DNA of 64,000 bases from Dehalococcoidia bacterium (lineage in GTDB: Bacteria; Chloroflexota; Dehalococcoidia; DSTF01; WHTK01): the NCBI GenBank assembly GCA_965219205.1, contig CBDCMQ010000007.1:3812-67811 (forward strand), written 5' to 3'. Both the position numbers and the translations under genes were made by a program. A model generated the notes under the pieces. The model worked only from the letters and a program-made list of their open reading frames with translations. It had not been told where the DNA came from and made no database searches. Positions 538 to 60,790 of the stretch are shown piece by piece; the first letter of the stretch is position 1, and each line of letters starts with the position of its first letter.

Positions 538-1869
538 ATGACGATCGCGTACCGAGGCGAAGAGATGCTGCGCATGGTGGACCCGGAGACCGGGACGGTT
601 GACCGGCGGATTTTCGCCGACCGGGATATCTACGAAATGGAACTGGAACGCATCTTCGCACGCGCCTGGAATTTCATGTGCCACGACTCCCAGATTCCCA
701 ACCCGGGCGACTTCTTCATGACCTTCATTGGCGAGGACCGCGTCATCTGCGTCCGCGACAACGATGGCAATCCTCAGGTCCTGGTAAACACCTGCCGCCA
801 CCGCGGCAACGCCGTCTGCCGCGCTGAAGAAGGCCACGCAACCAGCTTCATGTGCACCTACCACGGCTGGACCTATGACCTAAAGGGCTCTCTCGTCGGT
901 GTTCCCGGCTTTAAAGAGGTCTACCACGAAGAGCTCGACCGCGAAAATTGGGGCCTAATCAAGGCCGGCAAGGTCGATTCCTTCAAGGGCTTTATTTTCG
1001 CCACGATGGACTCGCAGGCTGTGGATCTCGATGAATTCCTTGGCGATGTCGGCACTATCGGCCTCAGCCTGCTCGCCGAACGCGGTGACCCTATGCAAAT
1101 CGTACCTGGAGTCCAAAAGTACACCATGCAGTGCAACTGGAAGCTGGCCGTCGACAACCTGTTCGACTGGTACCACCCCTTCATCAGCCATTACTCCGCC
1201 TTCGCTCTGAGAATGTTCGGCGAACCGAAGCCTGGTGGCGCCCTGGCCGACCCGCTCAAGCAGGAGCATCTGGTCAGCCTCGGTGACTACGGGCACGCCA
1301 TGAGTGGTCCCTTGTCCTATCTCGACAAGAACGGTGAGTCCATTCCCGGTTTTGATGAAAGCTGGCGCGAGCGGCCCCAGGCCAAGGAAGCCATCCCGCC
1401 CGGCATGATCAACACCTCCGCCCATCCCAACATCTTCCCCAACCTCTGGGTTTCGCAAAGCAGCGGCCAGCTGAGCTTGAGGGTTCCCAAGGGCCCCGGC
1501 ACAACCGAGATTTGGTGGTTCACCTACACTGACAAAAACGACCCGGCCGAGACCTTTCAAATCAAACGCGGAGCGGCTAACCACGTCTTTGGTCCCGCCG
1601 GGCTGCTTGAGATGGACGATGGTGAGAACTGGGGTGAAAGTACCAAGGGGGCTAAAGGAGTCATAAGCTCCCGCGCGCCGCTCAACTACTCGATGAACCG
1701 CAACCACGGCGAGATTATCGACGACGAGTCCGGCCCGTTGCGAATTGAGACCAACGTTAGTGAGCACGCTCAGTTGTGGACTTATCGCGCCTGGTCGGAG
1801 TGGATGGCGGCTGATAGCTGGGACGAACTAAAAGCCAATCACACGCCCTCACCTGGAGATCGCGTTTAA
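538..1869 (+). CDS. Rieske [2Fe-2S] non-heme iron oxygenase alpha subunit, alpha-only type (paralog 1)
   Basis: MTIAYRGEEM start with AGGAG RBS; CRHRGNAVCRAEEGH..CTYHGW Rieske motif; NWKLAVDNLFDWYHPFISH mononuclear Fe motif; 443 aa. Confidence 0.85.
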   Translation: MTIAYRGEEMLRMVDPETGTVDRRIFADRDIYEMELERIFARAWNFMCHDSQIPNPGDFFMTFIGEDRVICVRDNDGNPQVLVNTCRHRGNAVCRAEEGHATSFMCTYHGWTYDLKGSLVGVPGFKEVYHEELDRENWGLIKAGKVDSFKGFIFATMDSQAVDLDEFLGDVGTIGLSLLAERGDPMQIVPGVQKYTMQCNWKLAVDNLFDWYHPFISHYSAFALRMFGEPKPGGALADPLKQEHLVSLGDYGHAMSGPLSYLDKNGESIPGFDESWRERPQAKEAIPPGMINTSAHPNIFPNLWVSQSSGQLSLRVPKGPGTTEIWWFTYTDKNDPAETFQIKRGAANHVFGPAGLLEMDDGENWGESTKGAKGVISSRAPLNYSMNRNHGEIIDDESGPLRIETNVSEHAQLWTYRAWSEWMAADSWDELKANHTPSPGDRV

Positions 1870-1970
1870 ACGCCAGATCTCCCATCCCCAAAAAAGAGCG
1901 CGGCCTGAGGCTGCACTCTTTTTTGGTTGCGCTCTTGCGATCCGGTGATAGGCTAACGGTTCTTGGCCGG

Positions 1971-2102
1971 TACTATAATGGTGCCAACGCCGCGCGGTCG
2001 GCTGGTTTTGAATCTCAAGAACAGCCCGCACCAAGCGGTTATAAACCTCTTTAGTAGAGTTTTTAGAAGTCAGCCCGTTTAGTAAACGTCTTTCAAAGTG
2101 AG
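1971..2102 (+). promoter_or_regulatory. Leader of paralog 2: tactataatggtgcc then two TTTAG-boxes (ctttagtagagtttttagaag; gtttagtaaacgtctttcaaagtgagg)
   Basis: Direct sequence inspection. Confidence 0.4.
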
Positions 2103-2111
2103 GTTACTCCC

Positions 2112-3440
2112 ATGACTATCGCCTACCGCAGCGAAGAGATGCTCCGCATGGTGGACCCCGAGACCGCGACGGTCGACCGGCGAATATTCGCCGACCGGGA
2201 CATCTACGAGATGGAACTGAAGCGGATCTTCGCCCGCGCCTGGAACTTCATGTGTCACGACTCCCAGATCCCCAACCCCGGCGACTTCTTCCAGACGATC
2301 ATCGGTGAAGACCGCGTCATCTGCGTCCGCGACAACGATGGAAACCCCCAGGTGCTGGTCAACACCTGCCGCCACCGCGGCAACGCCATCTGCCGTGCCG
2401 AGGAAGGCCACGCCACCTCCTTCATGTGCACTTACCACGGCTGGACCTACGACCTCAAGGGCGCCCTGGTCGGCGTACCGGGCTTCAACGAGGTCTACCA
2501 CGAGGAGCTGGACCGCGAAAACTGGGGCTTAATCAAGGCTGGCCGAGTCGACACCTATAAGGGCTTCGTCTTTGCCACCATGGACCGGGAGGCCGTCGAG
2601 CTCCAGGAGTTCCTCGGCGATGTCGGCACCATTGGCCTTAGCCTGATCGCCGAACGCGCCGACCAGATGCGGATCATCCCCGGTGTCCAGAAGTACACGA
2701 TCCCTTGCAACTGGAAGCTTGCCGTCGACAACCTGTTCGATTGGTATCACCCCGGCATCAGCCATTATTCCGCCTTCGCCTTGAGGATGTTCGGCGAACC
2801 CAAGCCCGGCGGCGCTCTCGCCGATCCATTGAAGCAGCCTCAGCTAGTCAGCCTCGGCGACTACGGCCACGCCATGAGCGGACCGCTTTCCTACATCGAC
2901 GAAATCGGCGAGACCTGGTCAATGGACGAAAAGTGGCGCGACCGGCCGGCCGCGAAGGAAGCCATACCGCCAGGAATGGCTATGACCCAGGCCCATCCCA
3001 ACATCTTCCCCAATCTTTGGGTGTCTCAAAACGGTTCTCAGCTCTGCCTCCGCGTGCCCAAAGGCACATCAAAAACCGAAATCTGGTGGTTCAGCTTCGT
3101 CAACAACGACGAGCCGCCGGAGACCTTTCCCATGAAGCGCGCGATGGCCATAAACGTCTTCGGCCCCGCCGGGTTTCTTGAGATGGACGACGGCGAAAAC
3201 TGGGGCGAGAGCACTAAGGGAGCCAAGGGAGTCATCAGCAGCCGCGCTCCGCTCAACTACGCCATGAACCGCAACCACGGTGAGGTAATCGACGACGAGT
3301 CCGGACCTCTGCGCATTGAGACAAACGTCAACGAGCACGCCCAGTTTTGGACTTACCGCGCGTGGGCCGACTGGATGGCCGCCGAGAGCTGGGCAGAGCT
3401 CAAGGCTAACCACACACCATCGCCCGAAGGACGCGTCTAG
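2112..3440 (+). CDS. Rieske oxygenase alpha subunit, alpha-only type (paralog 2)
   Basis: Same motifs as paralog 1; 442 aa. Confidence 0.85.
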   Translation: MTIAYRSEEMLRMVDPETATVDRRIFADRDIYEMELKRIFARAWNFMCHDSQIPNPGDFFQTIIGEDRVICVRDNDGNPQVLVNTCRHRGNAICRAEEGHATSFMCTYHGWTYDLKGALVGVPGFNEVYHEELDRENWGLIKAGRVDTYKGFVFATMDREAVELQEFLGDVGTIGLSLIAERADQMRIIPGVQKYTIPCNWKLAVDNLFDWYHPGISHYSAFALRMFGEPKPGGALADPLKQPQLVSLGDYGHAMSGPLSYIDEIGETWSMDEKWRDRPAAKEAIPPGMAMTQAHPNIFPNLWVSQNGSQLCLRVPKGTSKTEIWWFSFVNNDEPPETFPMKRAMAINVFGPAGFLEMDDGENWGESTKGAKGVISSRAPLNYAMNRNHGEVIDDESGPLRIETNVNEHAQFWTYRAWADWMAAESWAELKANHTPSPEGRV

Positions 3441-3516: not shown

Positions 3517-4650
3517 TGATCTCGTTCAGAAAGATGCCGTACACGACAATGATGAGAAGGCGGGGACGATACGGAGTCCCAATGCAGACGTACGGGTCGA
3601 TCATCCCAGGCGGTCCAACCCTGGCTCGTCTCCTCCCAGAGGGAGCGCAGGAAGGCAGGGAGGAGCCACGACTATCACGTGAGGCGAAGGCGCGCCTCAG
3701 GGCTGTTGAGTGGCACAAGGATCACGGCGAGAAGGTGAGTCTGACGGCAAGACGCTTTGGACGCAGCCGCTCAACCCTTTACCAGTGGCTAGAGTGCTAC
3801 CGGCTCCAGGGTCCGCGGGGTCTGCAAGACCGCAGCCATAGGCCACACCAGGTCCGCAAGCCGACTTGGAGCCTAGAGTTCGAAGCAGCGGTGCTACGCC
3901 TGCGCCAAGACAATCCCGTCTGGGGCAAAGACAAGCTACAGCCGATCCTCAGACGCCAAGGGGTCACTATCTCGGTCTCGATGGTGGGCCGCATCCTCAG
4001 CCGGCTCAGACGCCAAGGCAAACTGGGGCCTGCGAGTCTGAAGGACCCTTGCATCGTCTCTCGGCCTCAGGTGCGGCCCTATGCCGTGCGTAAGCCCAAA
4101 GACTACGTCGTCAAGGCGCCGGGAGATCTGGTTCAGGTGGACAGCGCCGACGTGCGCTGGACCGGTATTACCCATGCCTACAAGCACTTCTCGGCGCGTG
4201 ATATTGTCAGCCGCTGGGACGTCTTGGGTGTCTACGGCCGCGCTACCGCCGGCACGGCGCGCGACTTCCTCGATACGGTCATCGAGCGTATGCCGGGTCC
4301 GGTGAAGGCGATCCAGGTGGACGGTGGCTCTGAGTTCAGGGCCGAGTTTGAGGCCGCCTGTGAGCAGAAGGGGCTGCGGCTTTTTGTGCTGCCACCACGC
4401 TCCCCCAAGCTCAACGGCTGCCTGGAACGAGCCCAGCGCACCCACAAAGAGGAGCTTTACCAGTTGGTTGACCCACCCGACTCGCTCAGCCAACTGAGAA
4501 CCCAGCTGCTCCAACAGGAGCAGCGTTACAACACTTACCGGCCCCATCAGGCCCTTGGCCATCTAACGCCGCAAGAGTGGCTGCTAGCATTCACCGAGAG
4601 GAGGTAAGTGTCCGGCATCTACTGGACGAGTACACTCGCTTTCGTCATTG
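3500..4650 (+). mobile_element. IS481-family insertion sequence (boundaries approximate; terminal inverted repeats not resolved)
   Basis: Single transposase ORF with N-terminal HTH and rve-type integrase core inserted between a Rieske gene and an MFS gene. Confidence 0.45.
3534..4607 (+). CDS. IS481-family transposase (HTH + DDE integrase core domain)
   Basis: HTH region ..RSRSTLYQWL..; integrase core ..PRSPKLNGCLERAQRTHKEE.. typical of IS481/rve transposases. Confidence 0.8.
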   Translation: MPYTTMMRRRGRYGVPMQTYGSIIPGGPTLARLLPEGAQEGREEPRLSREAKARLRAVEWHKDHGEKVSLTARRFGRSRSTLYQWLECYRLQGPRGLQDRSHRPHQVRKPTWSLEFEAAVLRLRQDNPVWGKDKLQPILRRQGVTISVSMVGRILSRLRRQGKLGPASLKDPCIVSRPQVRPYAVRKPKDYVVKAPGDLVQVDSADVRWTGITHAYKHFSARDIVSRWDVLGVYGRATAGTARDFLDTVIERMPGPVKAIQVDGGSEFRAEFEAACEQKGLRLFVLPPRSPKLNGCLERAQRTHKEELYQLVDPPDSLSQLRTQLLQQEQRYNTYRPHQALGHLTPQEWLLAFTERR

Positions 4651-4827: not shown

Positions 4828-6129
4828 ATGCTAGACCAACGACCCCCACCGGGCGTGCCGGCCAGCACATCCCGGCAGGAGCGCTTTAGAAAAGCAAGGT
4901 CGGGTCCTGGCACCTTCGACTCGTTTGGCAATCGCGAGTTTAGTTGGTTCTACGTTGCCATGCTTGGCCAAATGGCGGCCATGAACATGCAGTTGGTCGT
5001 GCCGGCATTGCTCGCCTTTGAGCTGACCGGTTCCTACGCTGCACTAGGCTTGATCGGCGTCTTCAGCGGCTTGCCGATGTTCGTGCTCTCCATGTTTGGC
5101 GGTGTGCTAGCCGATCGGATGCCGAAGCGAACTGTCCTGCAGGCCGGGCAGCTACTCAGCCTGATCAATTCTGCCATTATGGCAGCTTTGGTTTTTGGCG
5201 ACATGATGTCAATGGAATGGATCTACGTTTCAGCCTTTGCCCAGGGTGCCATCTTAGCCCTCCTCATGCCCGCCACTCAGGCCATTCTTCCCGACATCGT
5301 CAGCATGGACCGCCTGATGAACGCCGTCTCTTTGAATATGGCCGGTATGCATGTCACCCAGTTGCTGGCACCTGCAGCCGCGGGCTTTATCATTTCTGCA
5401 GCCGGCTTCGATTGGGCATTTATGGCGATGGCCGCCTTTTACGGCGCAGCGTTCCTCAGTCTTGCTCGTCTCAAGTGGCAAGCGGCTACGGTTGCGAGCG
5501 AGACCGGCATGACGCTGGTTCAATTGGGTTTGAAGAGTCTCAATGACATCGGTGAAGGGCTTCGTTACATCTGGCGCGATCCGCTGATGCTCACGCTTCT
5601 TTCAATCAGTTTTGGCACTTCGATTTTTGCAATGCCGCATCTATTCTTGCTGCCGGGCTACGTGGCCGACATTTTCGACGGCGGTGGTTCCGAGGTCGGC
5701 ATCATGTTCAGTGTGAGCGGGATCGGATCTCTGGTGGCAATGCTTGGGCTTGCGGCAGCACCCGGGCGCCGCCGCGGAAGGCTGCTTCTGGTCTCCATGA
5801 TTGCGCTTGGCGCTGCAATCTTGGTCTTTGCTCAAACCGCGAACTACTGGACCGCCGCGGCGATCATGATTCCGATAGGAGTTGGGTCCGCCCTCCGTTT
5901 GGCCTTGCTACAGGGTCTACTCCAGCAGTTCGCCGAGCATGAGTACCGCGGACGCGTAATGGCTGTTTTCATGATGCAATGGAGTGTTATGCCCATTGGC
6001 ACCTTACTGGTTGGCATCGTTGCCGAAGTCACAGGAGTCCGACCCGCCTTTATGGGCCTCGGAGTAGGCCTAATGTTGGTGACTATTGCCGTCTATGCCT
6101 TTAGTCCGAGGACACGTCAGCTCAGTTGA
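4828..6129 (+). CDS. MFS transporter (12-TM type; true start may be an internal Met near 4960)
   Basis: Long hydrophobic repeats, MFS-like loop motifs; 433 aa. Confidence 0.7.
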   Translation: MLDQRPPPGVPASTSRQERFRKARSGPGTFDSFGNREFSWFYVAMLGQMAAMNMQLVVPALLAFELTGSYAALGLIGVFSGLPMFVLSMFGGVLADRMPKRTVLQAGQLLSLINSAIMAALVFGDMMSMEWIYVSAFAQGAILALLMPATQAILPDIVSMDRLMNAVSLNMAGMHVTQLLAPAAAGFIISAAGFDWAFMAMAAFYGAAFLSLARLKWQAATVASETGMTLVQLGLKSLNDIGEGLRYIWRDPLMLTLLSISFGTSIFAMPHLFLLPGYVADIFDGGGSEVGIMFSVSGIGSLVAMLGLAAAPGRRRGRLLLVSMIALGAAILVFAQTANYWTAAAIMIPIGVGSALRLALLQGLLQQFAEHEYRGRVMAVFMMQWSVMPIGTLLVGIVAEVTGVRPAFMGLGVGLMLVTIAVYAFSPRTRQLS

Positions 6130-6198: not shown

Positions 6199-6377
6199 CA
6201 ACGTATAATGCCGCCAAGTAAGAGCGCTAGTGTCATAAAATCCCGGCAACCTCGTTTAGTAAGATCTTCACAAGCAATCTGGACACGTGTTCCAAGGCAC
6301 CGCTTTCACAAGCCTGCAGCCCAAATCCTCAGCCAACGCCTGCAACCCCATTTAGTAAGAATCTCTAAAAGTAGGAG
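6199..6377 (+). promoter_or_regulatory. Leader of paralog 3: cgtataatgcc then TTTAG-boxes at 6253-6274 and 6349-6377 (catttagtaagaatctctaaaagtaggag)
   Basis: Direct sequence inspection. Confidence 0.4.
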
Positions 6378-6383
6378 CCCAGA

Positions 6384-7712
6384 ATGACTATCGCCTATCG
6401 CAATGCGGATATGTTGGGCATGGTCAACACTGAGACCGGTACGGTCAACCGCCGGATCTTCTCTGACCAGGACATTTATGAGCTGGAGCTGGAGCGGATC
6501 TTCGCCCGAGCCTGGAACTTTATGTGTCACGACTCTCAGATTCCCAACCCCGGTGACTTCTTCCAGACCGTCATTGGTGAGGACCGCGTCATCTGTGTTC
6601 GTGACAACGATGGCATGCCTCAGGTTCTGGTCAATACCTGCCGCCACCGCGGAAACGCCATCTGCCGCGCTGACGAGGGCCATGCCACCTCCTTCATGTG
6701 CACCTATCACGGCTGGACCTACGACTTGAAGGGTGCCCTGGTTGGCGTACCCGGCTTCAAAGAGGTCTACCACGAGGAGCTGGACCGCGAAAACTGGGGC
6801 CTGATTAAGGCGGGCCAAGTCGATACTTATAAAGGTTTCATTTTTGCCAACATGGACCCTGAGGCTCCCTCCTTCCCCGAGTACCTCGGCGATGTCGGTC
6901 GGATGTCGATCGACCTTGTCGCCGAGAAGGGCGAGGAAGTCATCGCGGCCGCCGGGGTTCAGAAATACACGATTCCCTGCAATTGGAAATTCGCCGTCGA
7001 CAACGTCTGGGATTTCTATCACGGCCTTACCCACCAGTCGTCGCTCATGTCCGGTTGGCAGCGGAACGACCGGCGCCGCCCCGGTGATTTGACTACCAAC
7101 TTCAATCGCCCCAACATGGCTCTTCTCGGAGAATACGGTCATGTCATTGGCGGACCGGAAAACAGCCCGGACAACCCACAAAGTGCCATGCGATCCCAGG
7201 AATGGCGTGAGCGGCCCCAGGCCAAGCAGGCCTTGGGGCCGCTTGTCGACCGGATTCCCGCTGGACACCCGCAGATCTTCCCCAACTTCTGGGTGACCGG
7301 CCCGGGACTGGGCCAGGTCAGCATGCGCATGCCCAAAGGGCCGATGAAGACCGAGATCTGGTGGTTCACCTTCCTGGACAAGACCACTCCCGATAAGCAT
7401 CCAGGGCATCTCCAGCAGGCGATGCGCACCTTCGGCCCGGCCGGAATGCTGGAGCAGGATGACGGCGAGAATTGGGGACAGAGCACTCGCGGCATGGTCG
7501 GGACGGCTAGCCAGAAGCATGCCTTGAACTACTCCATGGACATCGGCCGCGGCGAGATCATCGACGACGAACTCAGCCCGCCGCGAATCGAGACATCGAG
7601 TGTTAGCGAGCACCCACAGCTCTGGCATTATCGTGCCTGGTCTGAGTGGATGTCAGCCGAGAGCTGGTCCGACCTCAAGGCCAATCACTCGGAGCCCAAG
7701 GGCCGCGTGTAG
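6384..7712 (+). CDS. Rieske oxygenase alpha subunit, alpha-only type (paralog 3)
   Basis: Same motifs; closely related to paralog 4. Confidence 0.85.
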   Translation: MTIAYRNADMLGMVNTETGTVNRRIFSDQDIYELELERIFARAWNFMCHDSQIPNPGDFFQTVIGEDRVICVRDNDGMPQVLVNTCRHRGNAICRADEGHATSFMCTYHGWTYDLKGALVGVPGFKEVYHEELDRENWGLIKAGQVDTYKGFIFANMDPEAPSFPEYLGDVGRMSIDLVAEKGEEVIAAAGVQKYTIPCNWKFAVDNVWDFYHGLTHQSSLMSGWQRNDRRRPGDLTTNFNRPNMALLGEYGHVIGGPENSPDNPQSAMRSQEWRERPQAKQALGPLVDRIPAGHPQIFPNFWVTGPGLGQVSMRMPKGPMKTEIWWFTFLDKTTPDKHPGHLQQAMRTFGPAGMLEQDDGENWGQSTRGMVGTASQKHALNYSMDIGRGEIIDDELSPPRIETSSVSEHPQLWHYRAWSEWMSAESWSDLKANHSEPKGRV

Positions 7713-7908: not shown

Positions 7909-8140
7909 TTTGAAAACCTCTCAGAGCGCCGTATAATGCCGTCAAGCAGCGAAGATCGCAGGTGCAACCTTCGCAACGCGCTTACATCTTTCGAAGGCAA
8001 AATCCACCCAACCTCTACTACCGCCTTTAGTAACAATCTTTCCGGCACGCTGCACCTTTTCCTAAACCCCACGTTTAGAATCCCAACGACCCAAAGCTCA
8101 CCAAACCCCTGTAACCCCCTTTAGTGAAAATCTTTAGAAG
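7909..8140 (+). promoter_or_regulatory. Promoter (TTGAAA-17-TATAAT at 7909-7937) and leader of paralog 4 with three TTTAG-boxes (8021-8040, 8071-8087, 8117-8140)
   Basis: Direct sequence inspection; near-identical to region 9611-9705. Confidence 0.45.
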
Positions 8141-8158
8141 CCAAAAGGAGGCCGGAAA

Positions 8159-9487
8159 ATGACAATCGCTTACCACAACGAAGAGATGCTGGCAATGGTG
8201 GACACAGAAAAGGGCATCGTCGACCGTCGGATCTTCTCCGACCAGGACATCTATGAACTGGAGCTGGAGCGGATCTTCGCCCGCGCCTGGAACTTTATCT
8301 GCCACGATTCCCAGATCCCCGAGCCCGGTGACTTCTTCCAGACCGTCATTGGCGAGGACCGCGTCATCTGTGTTCGTGACAACGATGGCATGCCTCAGGT
8401 CCTGGTCAATACCTGCCGCCACCGCGGCAACGCCATCTGCCGCGCGGACGAGGGCCACGCCACCAGCTTCATGTGTACCTACCACGGCTGGACTTACGAC
8501 CTCAAGGGCGCCTTGGTCGGCGTGCCGGGCTTCAAAGAGGTCTACCACGAGGCGCTCGACCGTGAAAATTGGGGCCTGATCAGGGCAGCCCAGGTGGATA
8601 CCTACAAGGGCTTTGTCTTCGCCAATATGGACCCGGAAGCCCCTTCCTTCCCGGAGTATCTTGGTGACGTCGGGCGCATGTGCATCGACATGGTCGCTGA
8701 AAAAGGCGAAGAGATCGTTGTAGCCGCCGGTGTCCAGAAATACACCATTCCCTGCAACTGGAAGTTTGCCGCGGACAACGTCTGGGACTTCTATCATGGC
8801 TTAACCCACCAGTCCTCGGTGATGTCAGGCTGGCAGCGCAATGATCGGCGCCGCCCCGGCGACTTGATAACCAACATCGCGCAGCCCAACATGGCTTTCC
8901 TTGGCGAATACGGTCACGTCCATGGTGGACCTGAGAACAGTCCGAATAACCCGCTAAACTCCATCCGCCCCCAGGAATGGCGTGAGCGCCCCCAGGCCAA
9001 ACAGGCCTTGGGGCCGCTGATTGACCGGATCCCGGCAAGCCACCCTCAGATCTTCCCCAACTTCTGGGTTACCGGCCCCGGCCTGGCCCAGGTAAGCATG
9101 CGCATGCCCAAGGGGCCGATGAAGACCGAGATCTGGTGGTTCACCTTCCTGGACAAAACCACTCCAGAAAAGCATCCGGGGCATTTGCAACAGGCGATGC
9201 GTACCTTCGGTCCAGCCGGTATGCTGGAGCAAGACGACGGCGAGAACTGGGGCCAAAGTACCCGTGGCATGGTTGGCACGGCCAGTCAGCGGCACCCTCT
9301 GAACTACTCCATGAATATCGGACGCGGCGAGATTATCGACGACGAAATCAGCCCGCCTCGCATCGAAACTCCAACTGTAAGTGAGCACCCCCAGCTCTGG
9401 CACTACCGGGCTTGGTCCGAGTGGATGTCAGCCGAGAGTTGGTCCGACCTCAAGGCCAATCACTCGGAGCCCAAAGGCCGCGTGTAG
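8159..9487 (+). CDS. Rieske oxygenase alpha subunit, alpha-only type (paralog 4)
   Basis: Same motifs; 442 aa. Confidence 0.85.
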   Translation: MTIAYHNEEMLAMVDTEKGIVDRRIFSDQDIYELELERIFARAWNFICHDSQIPEPGDFFQTVIGEDRVICVRDNDGMPQVLVNTCRHRGNAICRADEGHATSFMCTYHGWTYDLKGALVGVPGFKEVYHEALDRENWGLIRAAQVDTYKGFVFANMDPEAPSFPEYLGDVGRMCIDMVAEKGEEIVVAAGVQKYTIPCNWKFAADNVWDFYHGLTHQSSVMSGWQRNDRRRPGDLITNIAQPNMAFLGEYGHVHGGPENSPNNPLNSIRPQEWRERPQAKQALGPLIDRIPASHPQIFPNFWVTGPGLAQVSMRMPKGPMKTEIWWFTFLDKTTPEKHPGHLQQAMRTFGPAGMLEQDDGENWGQSTRGMVGTASQRHPLNYSMNIGRGEIIDDEISPPRIETPTVSEHPQLWHYRAWSEWMSAESWSDLKANHSEPKGRV

Positions 9488-9711: not shown

Positions 9712-11040
9712 ATGACAATCGCCTACCGCAACGAAGAGATGCTCAATATGGTCAGCAGTGAGACTGGCACCGTAGACCGGCGCATTTTCTCTGACAGGGA
9801 CATATACGAGCTGGAGCTCGAGCGTATCTTCGCCCGAGCCTGGAACTTCATGTGTCACGACTCCCAGATCCCCAATCCGGGCGATTTCTTCATGACAGTC
9901 ATCGGTGAAGACCGGGTCATCGTCGTCCGCGATGACGATGGCATGGCCCAGGTTCTGGTCAATACCTGCCGCCACCGCGGCAACGCGATCTGCCGGGCGG
10001 ACGAGGGCCACGCCACATCATTTATGTGCACCTACCACGGCTGGACCTACGACTTGAAAGGTGCGCTGGTTGGAGTGCCTGGCTTCAAAGAGGTCTACCA
10101 CGAGGAGCTCGACCGCGAAAATTGGGGGCTGATAAAGGCCGCCCAGGTGGATACCTACAAGGGCTTCATCTTCGCCAACATGGACCCCGAGGCTCCTTCT
10201 TTCCCCGACTACCTCGGCGAGGTCGGCCGCATGGCTCTCGACTCGATGGCGGAACGAGGCGATGAAATCACCATTCTCGGCGGTGTGCAGAAGTACACCA
10301 TCCCCTGCAACTGGAAGCTGGCCGCCGACAACGTCTGGGACTACTACCACGGCATCAGCCACCAGTCCGCCATGATGTCCGGCAGCTATGACGACGAAAG
10401 ATTGCGCAGTTGGGTTTACAGCAAAGATGACTACATGGTGATTCCGGGTGAGTACGGCCACGCCATCGGCGGACCGCAAATAACCGACCTGCAACAAGTC
10501 GCCATGGAGAAGCTCACTCAGATGCACGACTGGCGCGAACGTCCCCAGGCCAAGCAGGTGCTCGGCCCGGTTGGCATGAAGCACGCCGGCCATCCTCAGA
10601 TCTTCCCCAACTGTTGGCTCACCTTTGTCGGTCTCGGCCAAATCAGCATGCGCATGCCCAAGGGCCCCAACAAGACCGAGGTCTGGTGGTTCACCTTCGT
10701 CGACAAGAAAACGCCGGAAAAGCACCCCTTGCACCGGGGAATGGCGATCCACGTCTTCGGCCCCGCCGGCAGCCTCGAACAGGACGATGGCGAAAACTGG
10801 ACCCAGAGCACCATGGGCATGGTTGGCAAGGTAAGTGGGCGCTATCCGCTCAATTACTCGATGAACCTAGGCCGTGGCGAAATTATCAACGAAGAGGGCG
10901 GGCCGCCCCATATCTACTCTAAAGCCGTCAACGAGCATCCCCAGCTCTGGCACTACCGCGCCTGGGCCGATTGGATGGCCGCCGACAGCTGGGGCGAACT
11001 CAAGGCCAACCACACCCGGCTGCCCGACGACCGCCTGTAA
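9712..11040 (+). CDS. Rieske oxygenase alpha subunit, alpha-only type (paralog 5)
   Basis: MTIAYRNEEM start 7 nt after AGGAGG; same motifs. Confidence 0.85.
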   Translation: MTIAYRNEEMLNMVSSETGTVDRRIFSDRDIYELELERIFARAWNFMCHDSQIPNPGDFFMTVIGEDRVIVVRDDDGMAQVLVNTCRHRGNAICRADEGHATSFMCTYHGWTYDLKGALVGVPGFKEVYHEELDRENWGLIKAAQVDTYKGFIFANMDPEAPSFPDYLGEVGRMALDSMAERGDEITILGGVQKYTIPCNWKLAADNVWDYYHGISHQSAMMSGSYDDERLRSWVYSKDDYMVIPGEYGHAIGGPQITDLQQVAMEKLTQMHDWRERPQAKQVLGPVGMKHAGHPQIFPNCWLTFVGLGQISMRMPKGPNKTEVWWFTFVDKKTPEKHPLHRGMAIHVFGPAGSLEQDDGENWTQSTMGMVGKVSGRYPLNYSMNLGRGEIINEEGGPPHIYSKAVNEHPQLWHYRAWADWMAADSWGELKANHTRLPDDRL

Positions 11041-13097: not shown

Positions 13098-13532
13098 TCA
13101 GGTCTCGATAGTATCAGACGAATCGACCGAGTCCGCATCGGGCTCCACGGTGTCCGCGGGTACCAAAAACTGCGTGTTCATTCGCATGCTGCTCTGAATA
13201 GCCTCTGTGTCTGGCAAAAGGGTTGAGCCAGAACCCTCGTCTCCTGTCAACCTGCCGTGCTCGTCAAGGTAGATGCCCTGAGTGGCAGCGTCTTGAAGGT
13301 TGTCGAGTTCGTGATCGCCCTGTGGCATCAAACCGTCGCTGGCTGGCGCGGTCTGTGCCTGGGAAATGGTTTCGTCGTCAGCGACGACATTATGCTCGCC
13401 CCAGGGGGCGGTTTTGCTGAACTCGTCAGCCTTCGGCAGGGCATCGCCCGTGCCGGAGGCGCTCGATTCCGTGGCGTCCACCTCTCCGGAGGTCTGACGG
13501 CTAAATGGTTTTTTCCAGTTCGGCGGCATCAA
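13098..13532 (-). CDS. Highly acidic low-complexity protein, paralog of upstream gene (unknown family)
   Basis: Starts MMPPNWKK, ends ..LTGDEGSGSTLLPDTEA..; ATGA overlap with upstream gene. Confidence 0.55.
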   Translation of the reverse strand: MMPPNWKKPFSRQTSGEVDATESSASGTGDALPKADEFSKTAPWGEHNVVADDETISQAQTAPASDGLMPQGDHELDNLQDAATQGIYLDEHGRLTGDEGSGSTLLPDTEAIQSSMRMNTQFLVPADTVEPDADSVDSSDTIET

Positions 13533-13999
13533 ACCGGCTCGCTGTCGGTCTCGTCGTAGATGACCACGGATTCGTCGTCACCACCGAGATCGTCCCCACC
13601 TGCTGGCATCTTGAGGAAGGACTCATGACCTCCGAGCGACTTGGTTTCCGGCAGCAAGGTCGAGCCGGCGTCGTCCCCGGTCAACTCGGGGTCCATACTC
13701 CGCGGCCCACCGGGGTCTTTGACCTCATCGGTGAACTCGGCGTCCATGCGCTGCGGCCCACCGGGGTCTTTGACCTCATCGGTGAACTCGGCGTCCATGC
13801 GCTGCGGCCCGCCGGGGTCTTTGACCTCATCGGTGAACTCGGCGTCCATCTTATTAATTGTGACGTTGCCATCGCCATCGGCCGCGTCGTCTACCGCCTG
13901 ACGGGTATCGGCCTGCATTTTGCCTTGCAGGCTATCGGGCTTGGCCGCATCATCGACACTCTCGTTTTTCTTGAAAATATTCCTGATCTTTGGCATCAT
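13529..13999 (-). CDS. Highly acidic protein with three perfect 17-aa repeats (MDAEFTDEVKDPGGPQR), unknown family
   Basis: Starts MMPKIRNIFKK with ATGA overlap onto stop of 13996-15588 gene; C-terminal ..LTGDDAGSTLLPETKS.. shared with next gene. Confidence 0.55.
   Translation of the reverse strand: MMPKIRNIFKKNESVDDAAKPDSLQGKMQADTRQAVDDAADGDGNVTINKMDAEFTDEVKDPGGPQRMDAEFTDEVKDPGGPQRMDAEFTDEVKDPGGPRSMDPELTGDDAGSTLLPETKSLGGHESFLKMPAGGDDLGGDDESVVIYDETDSEPV
13681..13850. repeat. Perfect 51-bp tandem repeat (about 3.3 copies) inside coding sequence
   Basis: gcggcccaccggggtctttgacctcatcggtgaactcggcgtccatgcgct repeated head-to-tail. Confidence 0.75.
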
Positions 14000-34861: not shown

Positions 34862-34984
34862 AACTTTTTCTCTTAAAGGCCCGGTTTCTTAGCCTGGGCC
34901 TGATATCCATTATGTAACCAACCGGCAGATCCTGCGAGGCCCGGCCTGCCGGAGCCGGCGGAGCGGAACCGGCAGAGCAGAGCG

Positions 34985-36212: not shown

Positions 36213-36271
36213 AGTGTACCTCTCGAAATCCTTCTCTAGCCCCAGAGCGACTCGTTGCTTCTGGCAGCCGT

Positions 36272-40402: not shown

Positions 40403-40410
40403 GGAAGGCT

Positions 40411-41586: not shown

Positions 41587-41736
41587 CCGAGGCGCCCACA
41601 CATCACCAACCGGTCTATGCGAAAGCGGCGATTAAGCCGGCGATTATCCCGGCTGTCGCCGCCAATATCACCAGCATGCTGCCAGGGCCGCGATAGTCAC
41701 GCGGCAGCGGGCGCAGCAGGTCCGCCATCCTGCCGG

Positions 41737-42369
41737 CTACTTCCATCGGCGGGGCCGAGAGTTCCAGGTCACGGTGGGCTTGAGGCCGGCTCTGTCCATC
41801 GTTTCTTTGACGTAGCCAATTGCACGCATTACTTGGGGGACCATCGAGACGCTTTGGCGCTTGGCAGGTGTGCCTCCTCTGGACACCGCAGCCAGTGCTC
41901 GCCCAATCGCGGACTCGTCGCGTGCCCAAAGGCTGCGGAACCATACCTCTCCGCTGCTGTCGATCAGGTAGGCCGTGTTCGGTTTGCTATCCAGTTCCTT
42001 GTGCAAGCTTCCGTCTATGTCATCGACAACCACGGGCCAGGGTATGTCGTAAAGCTCTCGCAGTCCTCTTGCGTGTTCGATTTTCTCTGCCGAAGTGCCC
42101 GGCTGCGGCACGTTCTCTCCCGGGTGAGCCTCTCGGACATTGAGCGTGACGAAGTCAACTTCGGCGCCGAATTCCCGAAAGAGTCGCATCAATGTCGGCA
42201 TCGAGCTGGCCGTCATCGGGCAAGTCAGCGACCCGGTCACGAGCAGGACAGGCTTGCCTGTGACCAAGTTACTCACCGAGACCGCTTTTCCGTCAAGCCC
42301 GGCAATTGTCAAATTCGGAACCTTCTGGCCGGGCTTAAGGGCGGATCCGCCGTATCGCATGTCTCGCAT
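41737..42369 (-). CDS. Thioredoxin-fold (redoxin/AhpC-TSA-like) protein, single active-site Cys (TCP)
   Basis: ..KPVLLVTGSLTCPMTASSMPTL.. thioredoxin-like fold signature; start position uncertain (42369 or 42531). Confidence 0.5.
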   Translation of the reverse strand: MRDMRYGGSALKPGQKVPNLTIAGLDGKAVSVSNLVTGKPVLLVTGSLTCPMTASSMPTLMRLFREFGAEVDFVTLNVREAHPGENVPQPGTSAEKIEHARGLRELYDIPWPVVVDDIDGSLHKELDSKPNTAYLIDSSGEVWFRSLWARDESAIGRALAAVSRGGTPAKRQSVSMVPQVMRAIGYVKETMDRAGLKPTVTWNSRPRRWK

Positions 42370-42511
42370 AAGAAGCGGGACCGTAAAATGCCTGTAACGA
42401 TAGCGGTCCGTAACGCCGCCACTTTCAACCTGAGTAACTAGAGCTTCTTTCACCTTCAACCCCTTTGTTTCTTGCTCTGAAATCTGTCTATCCGCTGCTT
42501 CAAGCCACCGG

Positions 42512-49160: not shown

Positions 49161-51029
49161 ATGAGCACGATATTCGGGATTTTCAGCCCGAAGAACCCGG
49201 ACCTATTCTCGACCGACCATCTGGCGGCCATGGCCGCCGCGATGCGCCATTCCAGCCCCATGACGAAGACATTCGCGGATCCGGCTGCTGGAGCAGGGCT
49301 GGGCCTTGCCTACATACCCGCATTCCTCGCCTCCGGTGAGGCCGGCGAGCCGGCCTGGCTGGATGACGAAAATCTTCTCGTTGCTCTGGCTGGAACCCTT
49401 GATCTCAATGTCATTCCGGACCACGCGACCAACGGCCACAACGCTCAGGCTATCGCCGTGAAAGACCAATACGAAGCCGCTGACGAAAACTTTCCCCTTG
49501 GCCTTGACGGAGTCTTCAACCTCGCGGTTTGGGACAAAGGCAAAGCAGCCCTGACTCTCGCAACCGATATTCTCAGAAATCGGCCGCTCTACTATCATCA
49601 CAACCCGGTCACTGGCTACTTCGCCTTTGCTTCAGAGCTGAGCGCACTGCTTCGATTGTCCACCGTGCTTCGTGAAATCGACTACGATGGCCTCGCGAGC
49701 TACTTGGTGATTGGCTATGTGCCTGCGCCATTTATGATCGTCCGCGACATCCGCACGGCTCTCCCCTTTGAAAAACTGACGCTTGATCGGGCGGGACAAT
49801 TGGCCAGCAAGCGCTACTACCGCCTGCCCCTGGCTGAACCGGGCCCACTTGACCTCGATTATTGGACGCCTCGCCTGGAACAAGAACTGGTTGGCGCCAT
49901 GGAGCGCGTCACCAGAAAGACACCGGCGATCGCACTAGCGTTTAGCGCTGGTGTCGACTCGGCTGCGGTTTTGGCCGCCTTGCGCGAACTGGGCGGACCC
50001 CATGTAACCGCAATCACGGTCGCCTACCTTGACGGAGTCGAGAATGAGATCGAACCGTCGGCGACGCTGGCCCGCTCTTTAGGAGCGGAACCCCTCGAAC
50101 TTCTTGTGCGGCCGGCTGAGCTGACGCCGGAGCTGCTGTCAACCGCGTTTCGCCAATTTGACCAGCCGGTTGACACTTTTTCACGTGGCCCAACTCAGTA
50201 TTTACTCGCCGCCGCCGCCCAGAAGCAGGGAATCACTGCCTGCGTGACGGGGTTGCTGGGAGAAAATGTGATCGGCGAGCTGTCTTGGGAGCCTGGCCTG
50301 CGAAGGCTCGCCAAACGAAGCCCTCAAACCGCCGGGGACAATCTCATCCTGCGCTTGCTTGCCGATGGCAAAGATTTTTTCACCACAGCCGACCTCAAGA
50401 CCATCATGCGCCCGGAAATTTCGATTGATGCCGATGGCCGCGCCCAAATCAGCCGGGCAATCGACAAACTTACTGTTGGTGTCTCCGGCAACCCGGAATT
50501 CGAAGCGTATATGAACTTCACCGTTCTGCTTGCTCGTACCGGCAATCTTTCGGTTGCCGGTCAGGTAATCCCAGTCCTCCTTGGTGTCGAAGAACGGGCC
50601 GCCTTCGCTGACCGCAGGCTTTGGGAATTTGTTCAATCGATTCCTGCAGACCATAAGAGCAGCGATACTAGTAAAGGACGCAAGCGAGCCCTGCTCACCG
50701 CCGCTTTCCAGGAGCAGTTGGCCACGGAAGGCCAAGGGCGTGTACATAGGCGGGACAAGGGCTCTTATCCGGGTGTGCCCTGGCACGCTCAGCCGTGGTT
50801 CGAAGCATTGGTGCTCCGACAGGCGAAGCGCGCAGCTGGCGAAGGATTGATCGAGCCGAATGCAGTAGAGAAGGTTCTCCGAAAACACAACGAGCGTCGT
50901 GCCAAGCGCGACAAGAAAAACGTCTGGCATCTCTTCGTCCTTCAAGCTTGGCTGGACTTCCACTTCAACGACATCGATCCGTTCGAAGAGTCGCCAGAAC
51001 CAACACTTGGCGAGACCTTCTATGAGTAG
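49161..51029 (+). CDS. Asparagine synthetase B-like protein lacking the N-terminal Cys nucleophile (MSTIFGIF..), PP-loop present
   Basis: In-frame stop 25 nt upstream fixes the start; ..FSAGVDSAAVLAAL.. PP-loop; 622 aa. Confidence 0.75.
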   Translation: MSTIFGIFSPKNPDLFSTDHLAAMAAAMRHSSPMTKTFADPAAGAGLGLAYIPAFLASGEAGEPAWLDDENLLVALAGTLDLNVIPDHATNGHNAQAIAVKDQYEAADENFPLGLDGVFNLAVWDKGKAALTLATDILRNRPLYYHHNPVTGYFAFASELSALLRLSTVLREIDYDGLASYLVIGYVPAPFMIVRDIRTALPFEKLTLDRAGQLASKRYYRLPLAEPGPLDLDYWTPRLEQELVGAMERVTRKTPAIALAFSAGVDSAAVLAALRELGGPHVTAITVAYLDGVENEIEPSATLARSLGAEPLELLVRPAELTPELLSTAFRQFDQPVDTFSRGPTQYLLAAAAQKQGITACVTGLLGENVIGELSWEPGLRRLAKRSPQTAGDNLILRLLADGKDFFTTADLKTIMRPEISIDADGRAQISRAIDKLTVGVSGNPEFEAYMNFTVLLARTGNLSVAGQVIPVLLGVEERAAFADRRLWEFVQSIPADHKSSDTSKGRKRALLTAAFQEQLATEGQGRVHRRDKGSYPGVPWHAQPWFEALVLRQAKRAAGEGLIEPNAVEKVLRKHNERRAKRDKKNVWHLFVLQAWLDFHFNDIDPFEESPEPTLGETFYE

Positions 51030-56242: not shown

Positions 56243-57607
56243 ATGACAATCGCCTATCGAAACGAAGAGATGCTGGGAATGGTCAACCAAGAGACCGGTT
56301 TAGTGGACCGCCGCATCTTCTCCGAGCAGGACATCTATGAGATGGAGCTGGAGCGGATCTTCGCTCGCGCCTGGAACTTCATGTGTCACGACTCGCAAAT
56401 TCCCAACCCGGGTGACTTCTTCATGACACGCATCGGTGAAGACCGGGTCATCGTCGTACACGATAAAGATGGCAGCCCTCAGGTGCTGGTCAACACCTGC
56501 CGCCACCGCGGCAACGCCGTCTGCCGCGCCGAGGAGGGTCACGCAACCTCGTTTATGTGCACTTACCACGGCTGGACTTACGACCTCAAAGGCGCCCTGG
56601 TCGGCGTTCCCGGTTTCAAAGAGGTTTACCACGAGGAACTAGACCGCGACAACTGGGGCTTAATCAAGGCCGCCCAGGTTGAGACCTACAAGGGCTTCAT
56701 CTTTGGCAACATGGACCCTGAGGCGCCGGACCTCAACGAGTACCTCGGTCAGATCGGCCGCATGAGCCTCGATCTGGTCGCCGAGCGCGGCGACGTGACG
56801 ATCTCCGCTGGAATCCAGAAGTACACCATCCCTTGCAACTGGAAGCTCGCGGCCGACAATGTCTGGGACTTCTATCACCCTGGCATCAGCCACGCTTCTT
56901 CGGTCATGAGCGGCGTGAACGCGCGCGCGCGCCCGCCAAACGCGAAAACGCCGCCGCCGCCGAATCAGACTCCGGCCGCCAACCGCGCCTCGCGTCTGAC
57001 TAGCGCTCACATTATTCTTCTTGGTGAGTACGGACACGCTTTGTCCGGCCCTGAGCACAACGATGAAAATGCCGCATCCCGCCAATCGGATGAGACTTGG
57101 CGAGAAAAGCCGGAGGCCCAAGCTGTCCTGGGGCCAATCGGCATGCGAGCCAACTCCCACCCCCACATCTTTCCCAACATGTGGATCACCTACCCCGGTT
57201 TCGCCCAGGTCTGCATGCGTATGCCGAAGGGCCCCATGACAACCGAAATCTGGTGGTTTTCATTCCACGACAGCCAAATGGACAACGATATGAAAGCCTA
57301 CGCCCGTGAGCGGTCCACGCACGTCTTTGGTCCGGCCGGCATGCTGGAGCAGGACGACGGTGAGAACTGGGGCGAAAGCACCCGCGGCATGAAGGGCGTG
57401 GTCAGCAGCAGGTACCCGATCAACTACTCCATGAGCATCGGCCACGGTGAGATCATCGATGATGAAACCGGACCGCCCCGGATTGAGGGCCACGTCAATG
57501 AGCACGCCCAGCTCTGGCACTACCGGGCCTGGTCCGAGTGGATGGCAGCCGACAATTGGTCCCATCTGCGAGATATCCACTCTCGGGTGCCCGAGGACAA
57601 GGTCTAG
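56243..57607 (+). CDS. Rieske oxygenase alpha subunit, alpha-only type (paralog 9)
   Basis: MTIAYRNEEM..CRHRGNAVCRAEEGH..CTYHGW; 454 aa. Confidence 0.85.
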   Translation: MTIAYRNEEMLGMVNQETGLVDRRIFSEQDIYEMELERIFARAWNFMCHDSQIPNPGDFFMTRIGEDRVIVVHDKDGSPQVLVNTCRHRGNAVCRAEEGHATSFMCTYHGWTYDLKGALVGVPGFKEVYHEELDRDNWGLIKAAQVETYKGFIFGNMDPEAPDLNEYLGQIGRMSLDLVAERGDVTISAGIQKYTIPCNWKLAADNVWDFYHPGISHASSVMSGVNARARPPNAKTPPPPNQTPAANRASRLTSAHIILLGEYGHALSGPEHNDENAASRQSDETWREKPEAQAVLGPIGMRANSHPHIFPNMWITYPGFAQVCMRMPKGPMTTEIWWFSFHDSQMDNDMKAYARERSTHVFGPAGMLEQDDGENWGESTRGMKGVVSSRYPINYSMSIGHGEIIDDETGPPRIEGHVNEHAQLWHYRAWSEWMAADNWSHLRDIHSRVPEDKV

Positions 57608-59279: not shown

Positions 59280-59350
59280 CTTTAAAAGCCCAAAAAAACC
59301 CTTTCGCGAAAGATCTATCAAAACTACCTCACAACGTCTGCTGCTTCGCG

Positions 59351-59423
59351 TTTACAATGCCCAGGTACCAGCATTCGCCGGACCCCGGTAACCCCCTTTA
59401 GTCAGAATCCTTCAAAGTAGGAG
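59351..59423 (+). promoter_or_regulatory. Leader of paralog 10: tttacaatgccc -10-like box and TTTAG-box (ccctttagtcagaatccttcaaagtaggag)
   Basis: Direct sequence inspection. Confidence 0.4.
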
Positions 59424-59430
59424 CCCTGCC

Positions 59431-60790
59431 ATGACAATCGCCTCTAGAAGCGAAGAAATGCTGCGGACCGTGAACCTCGAGACCGGTACCGTTGACCGGC
59501 GAATTTTCTTCGAACAAGACATCTACGACTTGGAGATGGAGCGTATCTTCGCCCGCGCCTGGAATTTCATGGCTCATGATTCGCAAATCCCCAACCCCGG
59601 TGACTTCTTCATGACTTTCATTGGCGAGGACCGCGTAATCTGCGTGCGCGATAACGAAGGAAAGCCCCAGGTGCTGGTCAACAGCTGCCGTCACCGCGGC
59701 AACGCCATCTGCCGGGCCGACGAGGGCCACGCAACTAGCTTCATGTGTACCTACCACGGCTGGACTTACGATCTAAAAGGCGCTCTTGTCGGCGTGCCGG
59801 GCTTCAAGGAGGTCTATCACGAAGAACTCGACCGGGGAGAGCTGGGGCCTAATCAGGGCCACGCAGGTCGACACCTACAAGGGATTCATTTTCGCCAATT
59901 TGGACCCTGAAGCCTCTGGCCTTGAAGGATACCTCGGCGAAGTCGGCAACATGTGCCTTGACCAGTTGGCCGAACGCGGTGATATCCGTATCGTCGCCGG
60001 CATTCAGAAATACACTATTCCTTGCAACTGGAAGTTTGCTGCCGACAATGTTTGGGATTTCTACCACCCAAGCATCACTCACGTATCCTCTTTTATGGCC
60101 GGCAACTGGCGCAAAGCGGCGCCAGGCGCCGAGCCGCAGGCCCCGGCCCGTCAGGGCCATACGATCAACAGCCTCGAGCGAGCGCATGTCGTCGTCCTCG
60201 GTGAGTACGGTCACGCACTCTCTGGTCCCAAGCTCGACGAGCAGGGATTGGAAATGCGCCGCAATTTCGGCGGCGACAATCGCTGGCGCGAGCGCCCCGA
60301 AGTCAAGGCGACTCTCGGACCGGTCGGGCTCAAAGTCAGCGAACATCCCCAAATCTTCCCCAACCTCTGGCTCGCGACCGGCGGCGGCCAACTCAGCCTC
60401 AGGCTGCCCAAGGGTCCCGGCAAAACTGAGATTTGGTGGTTTACATTGATCGACAAGGATACAGAGGCGGAGATGCACGAAGTTCAGAGGCATCGCGCCA
60501 CTCATGTTTTCGGCCCGGCAGGCATGCTGGAGCAAGAGGATGGTGAGAATTGGGGCGAAAGCACTCGCGCCAATGCCGGCGTCGTTAGCCGTCGATTCCC
60601 GTTGCACTATGCAGCGGGCCACGGCCACGATGAGGTCATCGAAGACGAAGGCGGCCCACCCTATGCCGAAACGATGGTCAACGAGCACGCCCAACTCTGG
60701 CACTATCGCGCCTGGTCGGAATGGATGGCCGCCGATAGCTGGCAGGACCTGAAAGCCACTCACTCGCAGGTGCCGCGCGACCGACTTTAG
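59431..60790 (+). pseudogene. Rieske oxygenase alpha subunit paralog 10 with +1 frameshift in a G-run near 59835-59840 (possible sequencing error)
   Basis: ..ELDRGELGPNQ.. instead of ..ELDRENWGLIRATQVDTYKGF; correct continuation found in 59786-60790 frame. Confidence 0.55.

Follow-up and report, generated by a model that had tools for sequence, protein, structure and literature searches.

How does a bacterium assemble ten Rieske oxygenases and supply them with electrons when the DNA around them encodes neither a beta subunit nor a Rieske ferredoxin? The question is raised by a 64,000-nucleotide stretch of contig CBDCMQ010000007.1 (assembly GCA_965219205.1, Dehalococcoidia bacterium), hereafter the window, which holds ten Rieske/Ring_hydroxyl_A alpha genes, R1 to R10, all on the plus strand. 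The signature CRHRGNA[IV]CRA[DE]EGHATSF[MV]CTYH has exactly 10 matches in a six-frame translation of the window, every one on that strand, and gene calls on metagenome contigs 99.5–99.8% identical to the window assign PF00355 and PF00848 to its alphas. Seven of the ten copies are intact (R1–R6 and R9), and three are disrupted as assembled (R7, R8, and R10). The motif scan thus confirms the count and the positions given in a first-pass annotation of this DNA, apart from R8, where homology starts near 39110 and not at 39047.

The host of the array is a marine, SAR202-like member of the Dehalococcoidia. SAR202 bacteria abound in the ocean, and expanded oxygenase families are believed to let them oxidize recalcitrant dissolved organic matter (DOM). 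The comparisons below point to a family of alphas that descends from alpha-beta enzymes, has parted from its beta genes, and probably shares one electron donor chain encoded elsewhere.

Ancestry of the alphas and the beta linkage

The best solved relative of the window proteins is TodC1 (3EN1; E = 4.6e-74 over residues 5–433 of R2), followed by BphA1, HcaE, and CumA1, whereas the alpha3-only enzymes CntA, Stc2-like, and CarAa align over the Rieske domain only, at 1e-25 to 1e-6. The catalytic domain is PF00848, not VanA_C. An AlphaFold2 (AF2) model of R2, with a predicted local distance difference test (pLDDT) score of 83 and a predicted template modeling score (pTM) of 0.85, has a two-domain fold, Rieske plus START-like catalytic, and matches HcaE, BphA1, CumA1, and TodC1 at Foldseek template modeling (TM) scores of 0.79–0.84. 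Ranks 1–49 of that search against the Protein Data Bank (PDB) are alphas of alpha-beta enzymes, and CntA, at rank 50 with a TM score of 0.61, is the first alpha3-only entry. The pLDDT of the model falls below 50 at residues 89–110 and 121–138, where the cluster-binding loops and a 20-residue segment described below are invariant, likely reflecting an alignment without variation and a cofactor that is not modeled; since the low values fall exactly there, the model is unusable for the invariant Rieske surface.

The nearest cultured homologue (46% identity) lies on plasmid pYLC1 of Rhodococcus sp. YL-1, with beta, ferredoxin, and FAD-reductase genes alongside. Sequence comparison and the predicted fold assign all ten proteins to the toluene/biphenyl/HcaE lineage, in which the solved enzymes are alpha3beta3. 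The copies are not orthologs of any characterized enzyme, since their best NCBIfam model, HcaE (NF042946), gives 284–312 bits against a cutoff of 830 (284 bits for R2). The first-pass annotation had called them alpha-only and filed them with KshA, GbcA, Stc2, CarAa, and CntA, a placement contradicted by the TodC1-type homology, the Foldseek ranks, and the beta-bearing relatives.

Homologues at 57–95% identity amount to 3746 matches (E <1e-20), and their named sources are Dehalococcoidia metagenome-assembled genomes. A scan of GTDB species genomes gave 71 loci, mostly from OZ252017.1, a complete 3.06-Mb chromosome, and from the draft JBFWZE01, both Dehalococcoidia bacterium. OZ252017.1 holds at least 40 full-length family copies plus fragments, spread from 47 kb to 2.75 Mb within the 16% of the chromosome covered, and JBFWZE01 holds at least 45 copies, with at most two beta-like genes in each genome in the loci examined. 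The window is syntenic with OZ252017.1 at 74–92% nucleotide identity. In a neighbor-joining tree without support values, the window copies are not one another's nearest relatives; each pairs with its syntenic OZ252017.1 ortholog, except R3 and R8, and these pairs are interleaved with about 80 paralogs of other genomes. The tree also suggests that the beta-coupled clade is nested. We conclude that the array is part of a genome-wide birth-and-death family of alphas.

Amino acid identity among the ten copies is 60–90% in pairwise comparison, and the proportion of synonymous sites that differ (pS) is 0.43–0.76 everywhere, near saturation. The nonsynonymous counterpart (pN) is 0.04–0.13 in the Rieske domain and 0.23–0.34 in the catalytic domain for most pairs, with catalytic values of 0.05–0.13 for three recent tandem pairs (R1/R2, R3/R4, and R7/R8). 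Between window genes and their OZ252017.1 orthologs, the ratio of nonsynonymous to synonymous divergence (dN/dS) is 0.06–0.13, R7 and R10 included. Given synonymous sites near saturation and such low ratios, the family is old, functional, and under purifying selection. The same values, together with the syntenic orthologs, exclude duplication of one enzyme during assembly, a case that the first-pass annotation had raised against itself; what it had proposed, a lineage-specific expansion whose pockets have diversified and which lacks partner genes in the window, is supported.

Synonymous divergence between orthologs is uneven (window against OZ252017.1 loci L009, L025, and L015), at 0.14–0.19 for R6, R2, and R1, 0.36–0.40 for R4 and R5, 0.67–0.73 for R7, R9, and R10, and 1.34 for the beta gene described below; recombination between lineages or mis-assigned orthology may account for this. 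A tract of 239 nucleotides is identical between R5 (9856–10094) and R7 (37672–37910), 28 kb apart and inside the Rieske domain; no other pair of copies shares an identical run longer than 47 nucleotides. Because the OZ252017.1 ortholog of R7 lacks the tract, it marks a recent R5-to-R7 gene conversion.

In the nearest relatives outside the Dehalococcoidia (48–55% identity; Alpha- and Gammaproteobacteria, Myxococcota, and Pseudonocardia), beta lies directly downstream of all 12 alphas for which downstream DNA is available. Among roughly 90 family alphas in 59 Dehalococcoidia loci, not one has an adjacent beta (PF00866). On this comparison of gene neighborhoods, the family has lost an alpha-beta operon still present in its nearest relatives.

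An orphan beta does exist in OZ252017.1 (L041:13493–14020, minus strand), intact, with canonical motifs and 132 bits to PF00866. An 89%-identical ortholog, P0121, lies at L081:10001–10528 (plus strand) on contig_36 of ERZ25072587; that sample also holds contig_18, which is window-like, and contig_36 with its orphan beta probably belongs to the window's organism. Contig_36 and OZ252017.1 share 83% nucleotide identity and synteny around the gene (an ABC peptide-type transporter, hydrolases, beta, a hydrolase, two PNPOx genes, and a convergent family alpha), and the dN/dS of beta between the two species is 0.05. In both, beta is co-stranded with the genes for the oligopeptide-type ABC transporter and alpha/beta-hydrolases. 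At the position of CumA2 R65, this beta has Val, with Arg at +2 and Lys at +3, an arrangement reported from class III enzymes. In JBFWZE01, a gap of 4 nucleotides separates the ortholog of this beta from a divergent alpha upstream of it, which scores 331 bits against the family profile; the two make a canonical pair. In OZ252017.1 the same divergent alpha stands 14 kb from beta. Given the JBFWZE01 pair, beta has a plausible cognate partner outside the expanded family.

Rieske domain, catalytic pocket, and electron supply

The Rieske motif and its ligands are invariant in 90 of 90 family members, and so are the equivalents of BphA H233, H239, D388, and D230; the ten window copies all keep these two His and one Asp that bind Fe, and the bridging Asp, in agreement with the TodC1 alignment. 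Across the 90 members, the Rieske domain (residues 40–150) is 84–91% identical while the catalytic domain is 35–65% identical. In 15 beta-coupled relatives, at equal catalytic divergence, the Rieske domain is 55–69% identical. Column entropy over residues 81–140 is 0.04–0.3 bits in the family against 0.45–1.07 bits in the relatives; in the catalytic loops 221–260, 271–320, and 341–360, it is 1.9–3.4 bits against 1.1–2.3 bits. Residues 141–190 are moderately variable, and residues 121–140, just after the cluster ligands, are the most conserved part of the protein. Of the two regions that the first-pass annotation had named as most variable, the one around residues 230–300 is indeed variable, and the loop after the Rieske domain is the reverse. 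Rieske uniformity reflects selection rather than homogenization, because synonymous sites in this domain have diverged. The equivalents of BphA M231, A234, V287, G321, L333, and F336, which we take to be pocket positions (the residues matched the KF715 sequence), have entropies of 1.7–3.7 bits against a domain mean of 1.69 bits.

Among 120 cluster representatives in the database, which come from many metagenomes, 93 share an identical 20-mer, GVPGFKEVYHEELDRENWGL. It spans the equivalents of CumA1 K141 and D158/W159/L162, residues that have been tested as a ferredoxin-docking surface (PMC9361823), and both sites are candidates for ferredoxin docking. In CumA1, a conserved alpha lysine, K117, takes part in Rieske-ferredoxin docking at the alpha/beta groove (PMC9361823). 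The divergent Dehalococcoidia alphas have Lys at the equivalent position, as do 6 of the 15 beta-coupled relatives; the other 9 lack it.

We searched for partners with profiles built from the beta subunit, Rieske ferredoxin, and reductase of four genuine systems (E. coli HcaF/C/D, Rhodococcus sp. YL-1, R. opacus B4 BphA2-4, and P. putida KF715). Run against the six-frame translation of the window, these found no beta subunit, no Rieske ferredoxin, and no oxygenase-type reductase. Scanning the window and the 71 loci for Cys motifs of other ferredoxins (4Fe-4S, 3Fe-4S, plant-type, and adrenodoxin-type) and of rubredoxin turned up nothing but spurious matches out of frame. The sole reductase-like match in the window is a thioredoxin reductase gene, 34985–36118 on the minus strand (TIGR01292, 323 bits; CATC motif; adjoining DsbD/CcdA gene). 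The first-pass statement that the 64 kb lack beta, ferredoxin, and reductase genes therefore holds for the oxygenase partners and has to be amended for this flavoprotein. We considered the gene, which has a Pyr_redox_2 domain, as a BphA4-like reductase and rejected it on its CATC motif, its TIGR01292 match, and its lack of Reductase_C-type length. Two small open reading frames (ORFs) upstream of R7 (36214–36696 and 36705–37139) were likewise rejected as a cryptic beta, being of low complexity and without a match to Pfam, NCBIfam, or the beta profile.

Beyond the window, OZ252017.1 locus L018 carries a BphB-like dihydrodiol dehydrogenase, a family alpha, an MFS transporter, a 98-aa Rieske ferredoxin (PF00355, 81 bits), and a 228-aa NAD_binding_1 (FNR-like) protein, without a beta. 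Partners outside its reading, which the first-pass annotation had named as a point against itself, thus do turn up as this ferredoxin and NAD_binding_1 gene and as the orphan beta of contig_36; none adjoins the ten genes or is dedicated to them. A canonical BphA4-type reductase was not found in about 1 Mb of loci. A ferredoxin homologue, P0242 (84% identity), comes from an unrelated sample, and no ferredoxin was tied to the window's organism. Remote partners are not unusual in themselves, because L061, a beta-coupled relative in the Steroidobacteraceae that was examined as a case without the docking Lys, also has no electron-transfer gene within 10 kb. BphB-like or BphC-like genes stand beside alphas in L018, L011, L054, L024, L012, L034, and L063, and from these neighbors at least part of the family would be expected to perform classical arene dihydroxylation.

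On balance, we consider it probable that the family works as a hub-and-spoke system, in which many alphas draw on one shared donor chain encoded elsewhere. A shared donor fits the family because the Rieske domain is so nearly uniform while the catalytic domain has diverged. One electron-transfer chain, for which the 98-aa ferredoxin and FNR-like gene of the related genome OZ252017.1 are candidates, would reduce the invariant Rieske domain of any alpha that is expressed; the alpha's own pocket would select an aromatic or DOM-derived substrate for hydroxylation; and the products would pass to dihydrodiol dehydrogenases and extradiol dioxygenases, few in number and likewise shared. Pockets would diversify by duplication, divergence, and loss, with the Rieske domain kept to a standard. 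More tentatively, we propose that a large clade of alpha3beta3 descent has given up a beta of its own, its Rieske domain serving as a standard "plug" for a single donor and its catalytic domains being free to diversify. If true, this would mean either beta-free alpha3 enzymes or a single beta common to more than 40 alphas, and the modular design would be one that is not known from this enzyme lineage.

Several observations weigh against the hub-and-spoke model. The ferredoxin and reductase candidates come from a related species (80–92% nucleotide identity), not from the window's own organism. The K117 equivalent is Thr in 83 and Ser in 7 of the 90 family members, never Lys or Arg, which may mean that the donor is something other than a Rieske ferredoxin. 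Conservation of the Rieske domain could partly reflect alpha-alpha or alpha-beta contacts in place of donor docking, and there is one clear gene-conversion tract, R5 to R7. The window contains no dihydrodiol dehydrogenase or ring-cleavage gene, and its amidase, AsnB-like, GNAT, LLM, and MFS neighbors may hint at substrates or chemistry other than classical arene cis-dihydroxylation. Finally, the loci that cover 16% of OZ252017.1 were picked for carrying alphas, and the counts of beta and electron-transfer genes apply to those loci.

Alternatively, the alphas may form canonical alpha3beta3 hexamers in which one orphan beta serves 40 or more of them, the invariant surface then being the alpha-beta/ferredoxin groove. 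That beta is intact, syntenic in two species, and under strong constraint, all close relatives and solved structural neighbors of the family are alpha-beta enzymes, the 20-mer includes the K141 equivalent, an alpha/beta "side-wise" site, and the C-terminal helix is also well conserved. However, the JBFWZE01 beta is already paired with a divergent alpha that keeps the docking Lys, no family alpha among some 90 is co-oriented with or adjoins a beta, the alpha Lys that cooperates with beta Arg65 in ferredoxin docking is absent from all 90, and the gene ratio is at least 40:1. A shared beta seems to us possible but somewhat doubtful. Assembly as beta-free alpha3 enzymes, to which we would give a little less than an even chance, has in our view a slight edge over assembly with that one beta.

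Two further readings fare much worse. That the genes encode alpha3-type enzymes resembling the phthalate family, which never had a beta, as in KshA, GbcA, Stc2, CarAa, and CntA, would agree with a window devoid of beta genes and with the suggestion that excess alphas act without beta (Saw et al. 2020), yet the weak matches confined to the Rieske domain, the presence of PF00848 in place of VanA_C, the first such enzyme only at Foldseek rank 50 (TM 0.61), and relatives that carry beta make it very improbable. It is contradicted as a statement of family membership, and what survives of it is the functional claim that the enzymes work without beta. An array of artefacts, either one enzyme duplicated in assembly or mostly dead genes, is more improbable still. 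The disruption of 3 of 10 copies and the frequent single-nucleotide indels between near-identical assemblies speak for it, but the copies differ at 43–76% of synonymous sites, their syntenic orthologs in another species have dN/dS of 0.06–0.13, the catalytic residues are all intact, and independent assemblies from other samples carry these genes.

Individual copies and their neighbors

R1 (538–1869), intact and 443 aa long, was recognized by its translation and motifs and has PF00355 and PF00848 on a near-identical contig; its OZ252017.1 ortholog is 96% identical in amino acids, with dN/dS 0.10. R2 (2112–3440), intact with 442 aa and TodC1 as its best PDB match, is 84% identical to R1. R3 (6384–7712) is an intact, recent tandem duplicate (90% amino acid identity) of the equally intact R4 (8159–9487; ortholog dN/dS 0.086), and synteny and tree comparison found no separate ortholog of R3 in OZ252017.1. 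The conversion donor R5 (9712–11040; ortholog dN/dS 0.058) and R6 (31583–32917; 0.13) are intact, R6 sitting downstream of a divergently oriented GNAT-amidase-AsnB-like block (27528–31366, minus strand). R9 (56243–57607), intact with 454 aa and an ortholog dN/dS of 0.086, has a Pro-rich insertion in the variable loop.

Each intact copy has a Shine-Dalgarno-like sequence of its own upstream. A motif, GTAACCCC-N-TTTAGT-N-A-N-AATC-N-TT-N-AAAGTAGGAG, occupies about 60 nucleotides 5' of R2, R3, R4, and R10, and partly of R5, and reaches into the Shine-Dalgarno sequence (for example, 6330–6383, 8105–8158, and 59377–59430). TACAAT/TAGAAT-like hexamers lie further upstream of R4, R5, R7, and R10. The conserved motif may be a common promoter or operator, or merely a duplicated leader.

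R7 (37528–38856) is interrupted by an in-frame TGA (38116–38118) at the Cys codon of CNWK (YTIPCNWK). Every paralog has Cys at this position, as does the intact OZ252017.1 ortholog; because that ortholog is intact and its dN/dS is 0.065, the lesion is either recent or a base-call error. Selenocysteine recoding of the TGA was rejected: nothing supports it, and the paralogs and the ortholog all have a plain Cys there. R8 (~39110–40403), a tandem duplicate of R7 (80% amino acid identity), is a pseudogene candidate with two lesions: about 10 N-terminal codons are lost, so the MTIA start once ascribed to all ten proteins applies to the others and not to R8, and a C7 run at 40268–40274 holds 1 extra C. 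No ortholog of R8 was found in OZ252017.1. R10 (59431–60790) is frameshifted by 1 extra G in a G4 run (59834–59837), and the frameshift recurs in contig_18, an assembly from another sample. The OZ252017.1 ortholog (dN/dS 0.068) has two TAG stops instead, at aa 236 and 431 (CAG to TAG and TGG to TAG). Because the lesions differ between the window and contig_18 on one side and the ortholog on the other, R10 is probably a real pseudogene, with independent recent inactivation in two lineages.

Single-nucleotide indels separate the window from 99.5–99.8% identical assemblies about every 3.5–7 kb (6 in 21 kb and 3 in 21 kb; near 41785, 45078, 45356, 47209, 61037, and 62043, and at 1489, 13918, and 16022). 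The indel at 1489 splits R1 in contig ctg804708, and that near 41785 frameshifts a T4_deiodinase/redoxin-like gene (41615–42454, minus strand) that is intact in contig_18. Given how often assemblies this similar differ in such a way, one frameshift or stop by itself is weak evidence unless backed by reads.

The rest of the window encodes MFS and ABC transporters, LLM (luciferase-like monooxygenase) and GFO/IDH/MocA oxidoreductases, two AsnB-like proteins, two amidases, GNATs, alpha/beta-hydrolases, an amidohydrolase, a two-component regulatory system, and an insertion sequence (IS)-like gene; neither tRNAs nor Rfam families at gathering thresholds were found in it. Among the 59 Dehalococcoidia loci with family alphas, MFS genes occur in 15–17 and amidases in 10–11. 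Two AsnB-like amidotransferase/amidase/GNAT sets lie near oxygenases, one at 27528–31366 (minus strand) and the other at 49161–51029 (plus strand) and 61329–63491; because their paired proteins are only 28–31% identical, they are old paralogs. A redox cluster unrelated to the oxygenases (33142–36118, minus strand) comprises a beta-lactamase-family protein (33142–34119), a DsbD/CcdA-like membrane protein (34128–34910), and the thioredoxin reductase, TrxB, which has a glutaredoxin-like N-terminal extension.

The IS-like gene (3534–4607, plus strand; HTH_23/HTH_28/rve_3 integrase core) stands between R2 and an MFS gene (4828–6129). The syntenic region of OZ252017.1 gives no blastn match to it and also lacks R3, so the array was recently rearranged there. 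Acidic ORFs at 13098–15588 (minus strand), without a Pfam or NCBIfam match, contain tandem MDAEFTDEVKDPGGPQR repeats; the repeat number is variable, since gene lengths differ between two near-identical contigs (129 versus 173 aa and 526 versus 481 aa).

Comparison with known systems

A beta-free oxygenase of the alpha3beta3 lineage would, if true, be a simpler biocatalyst, and the family offers a test set for expression in which one ferredoxin/reductase pair could be combined, with and without one beta, with any alpha. Compared with the toluene, biphenyl, cumene, and 3-phenylpropionate alphas (TodC1 3EN1, BphA1 1ULI/2XR8, CumA1 1WQL, and HcaE 8K0A), the window proteins have full-length homology (31–34% identity over structure-based alignments, E ~1e-70), a shared fold (TM 0.8), the same Rieske ligands, Fe ligands, and bridging Asp, and similar length. 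Unlike those alphas, they lack neighboring genes for beta, ferredoxin, reductase, dehydrogenase, or ring cleavage, they replace the docking Lys (CumA1 K117) with Thr/Ser, and they number more than 40 paralogs per genome. With the alpha3-only oxygenases (CARDO CarAa, KshA, CntA, Stc2, and the VanA/phthalate family), they possibly share the quaternary logic of enzymes without beta and top-wise ferredoxin docking; however, the catalytic domain is of another family and the similarity is weak and Rieske-only, and these enzymes are not the evolutionary origin of the window genes.

Systems in which several oxygenases share one electron-transfer chain are known from Mycobacterium and Novosphingobium. 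In Sphingobium yanoikuyae B1, several oxygenases share one ferredoxin and reductase (PMC1847435). Like the window's family, such systems have many scattered terminal oxygenases and a single ferredoxin plus reductase elsewhere, but they keep a beta beside each alpha, whereas the expanded family has none and a far more uniform Rieske domain.

The closest parallel is with the expansions described in SAR202 itself, in the same class. SAR202 genomes have 1–62 alpha genes against 1–3 beta genes each, and most of the alphas were suggested to act without beta (Saw et al. 2020, PMC6946804); paralog expansion of these ring-hydroxylating dioxygenases (RHD; COG4638) was also found by Colatriano et al. 2018 (PMC6123686), and HcaE-type transcripts have been detected in SAR202 in situ. 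OZ252017.1 and JBFWZE01 match the pattern of Saw et al. 2020, with tens of COG4638 alphas and few betas. The published expansions are the same phenomenon, dozens of alphas against 1–3 betas, partly annotated as HcaE-like and proposed to oxidize resistant aromatic DOM (PMC6946804, PMC6123686). Those studies count COG matches over all RHD types and do not separate this HcaE/BphA-lineage clade. They also do not show that the clade, unlike its sister clades, lost the alpha-beta operon, or that its Rieske domain is invariant. An expansion of alphas with few betas is therefore already published, and what the present comparison adds is the descent from alpha3beta3 enzymes, the complete loss of linkage relative to sister clades, the near-invariant Rieske domain, and candidates for the partners.

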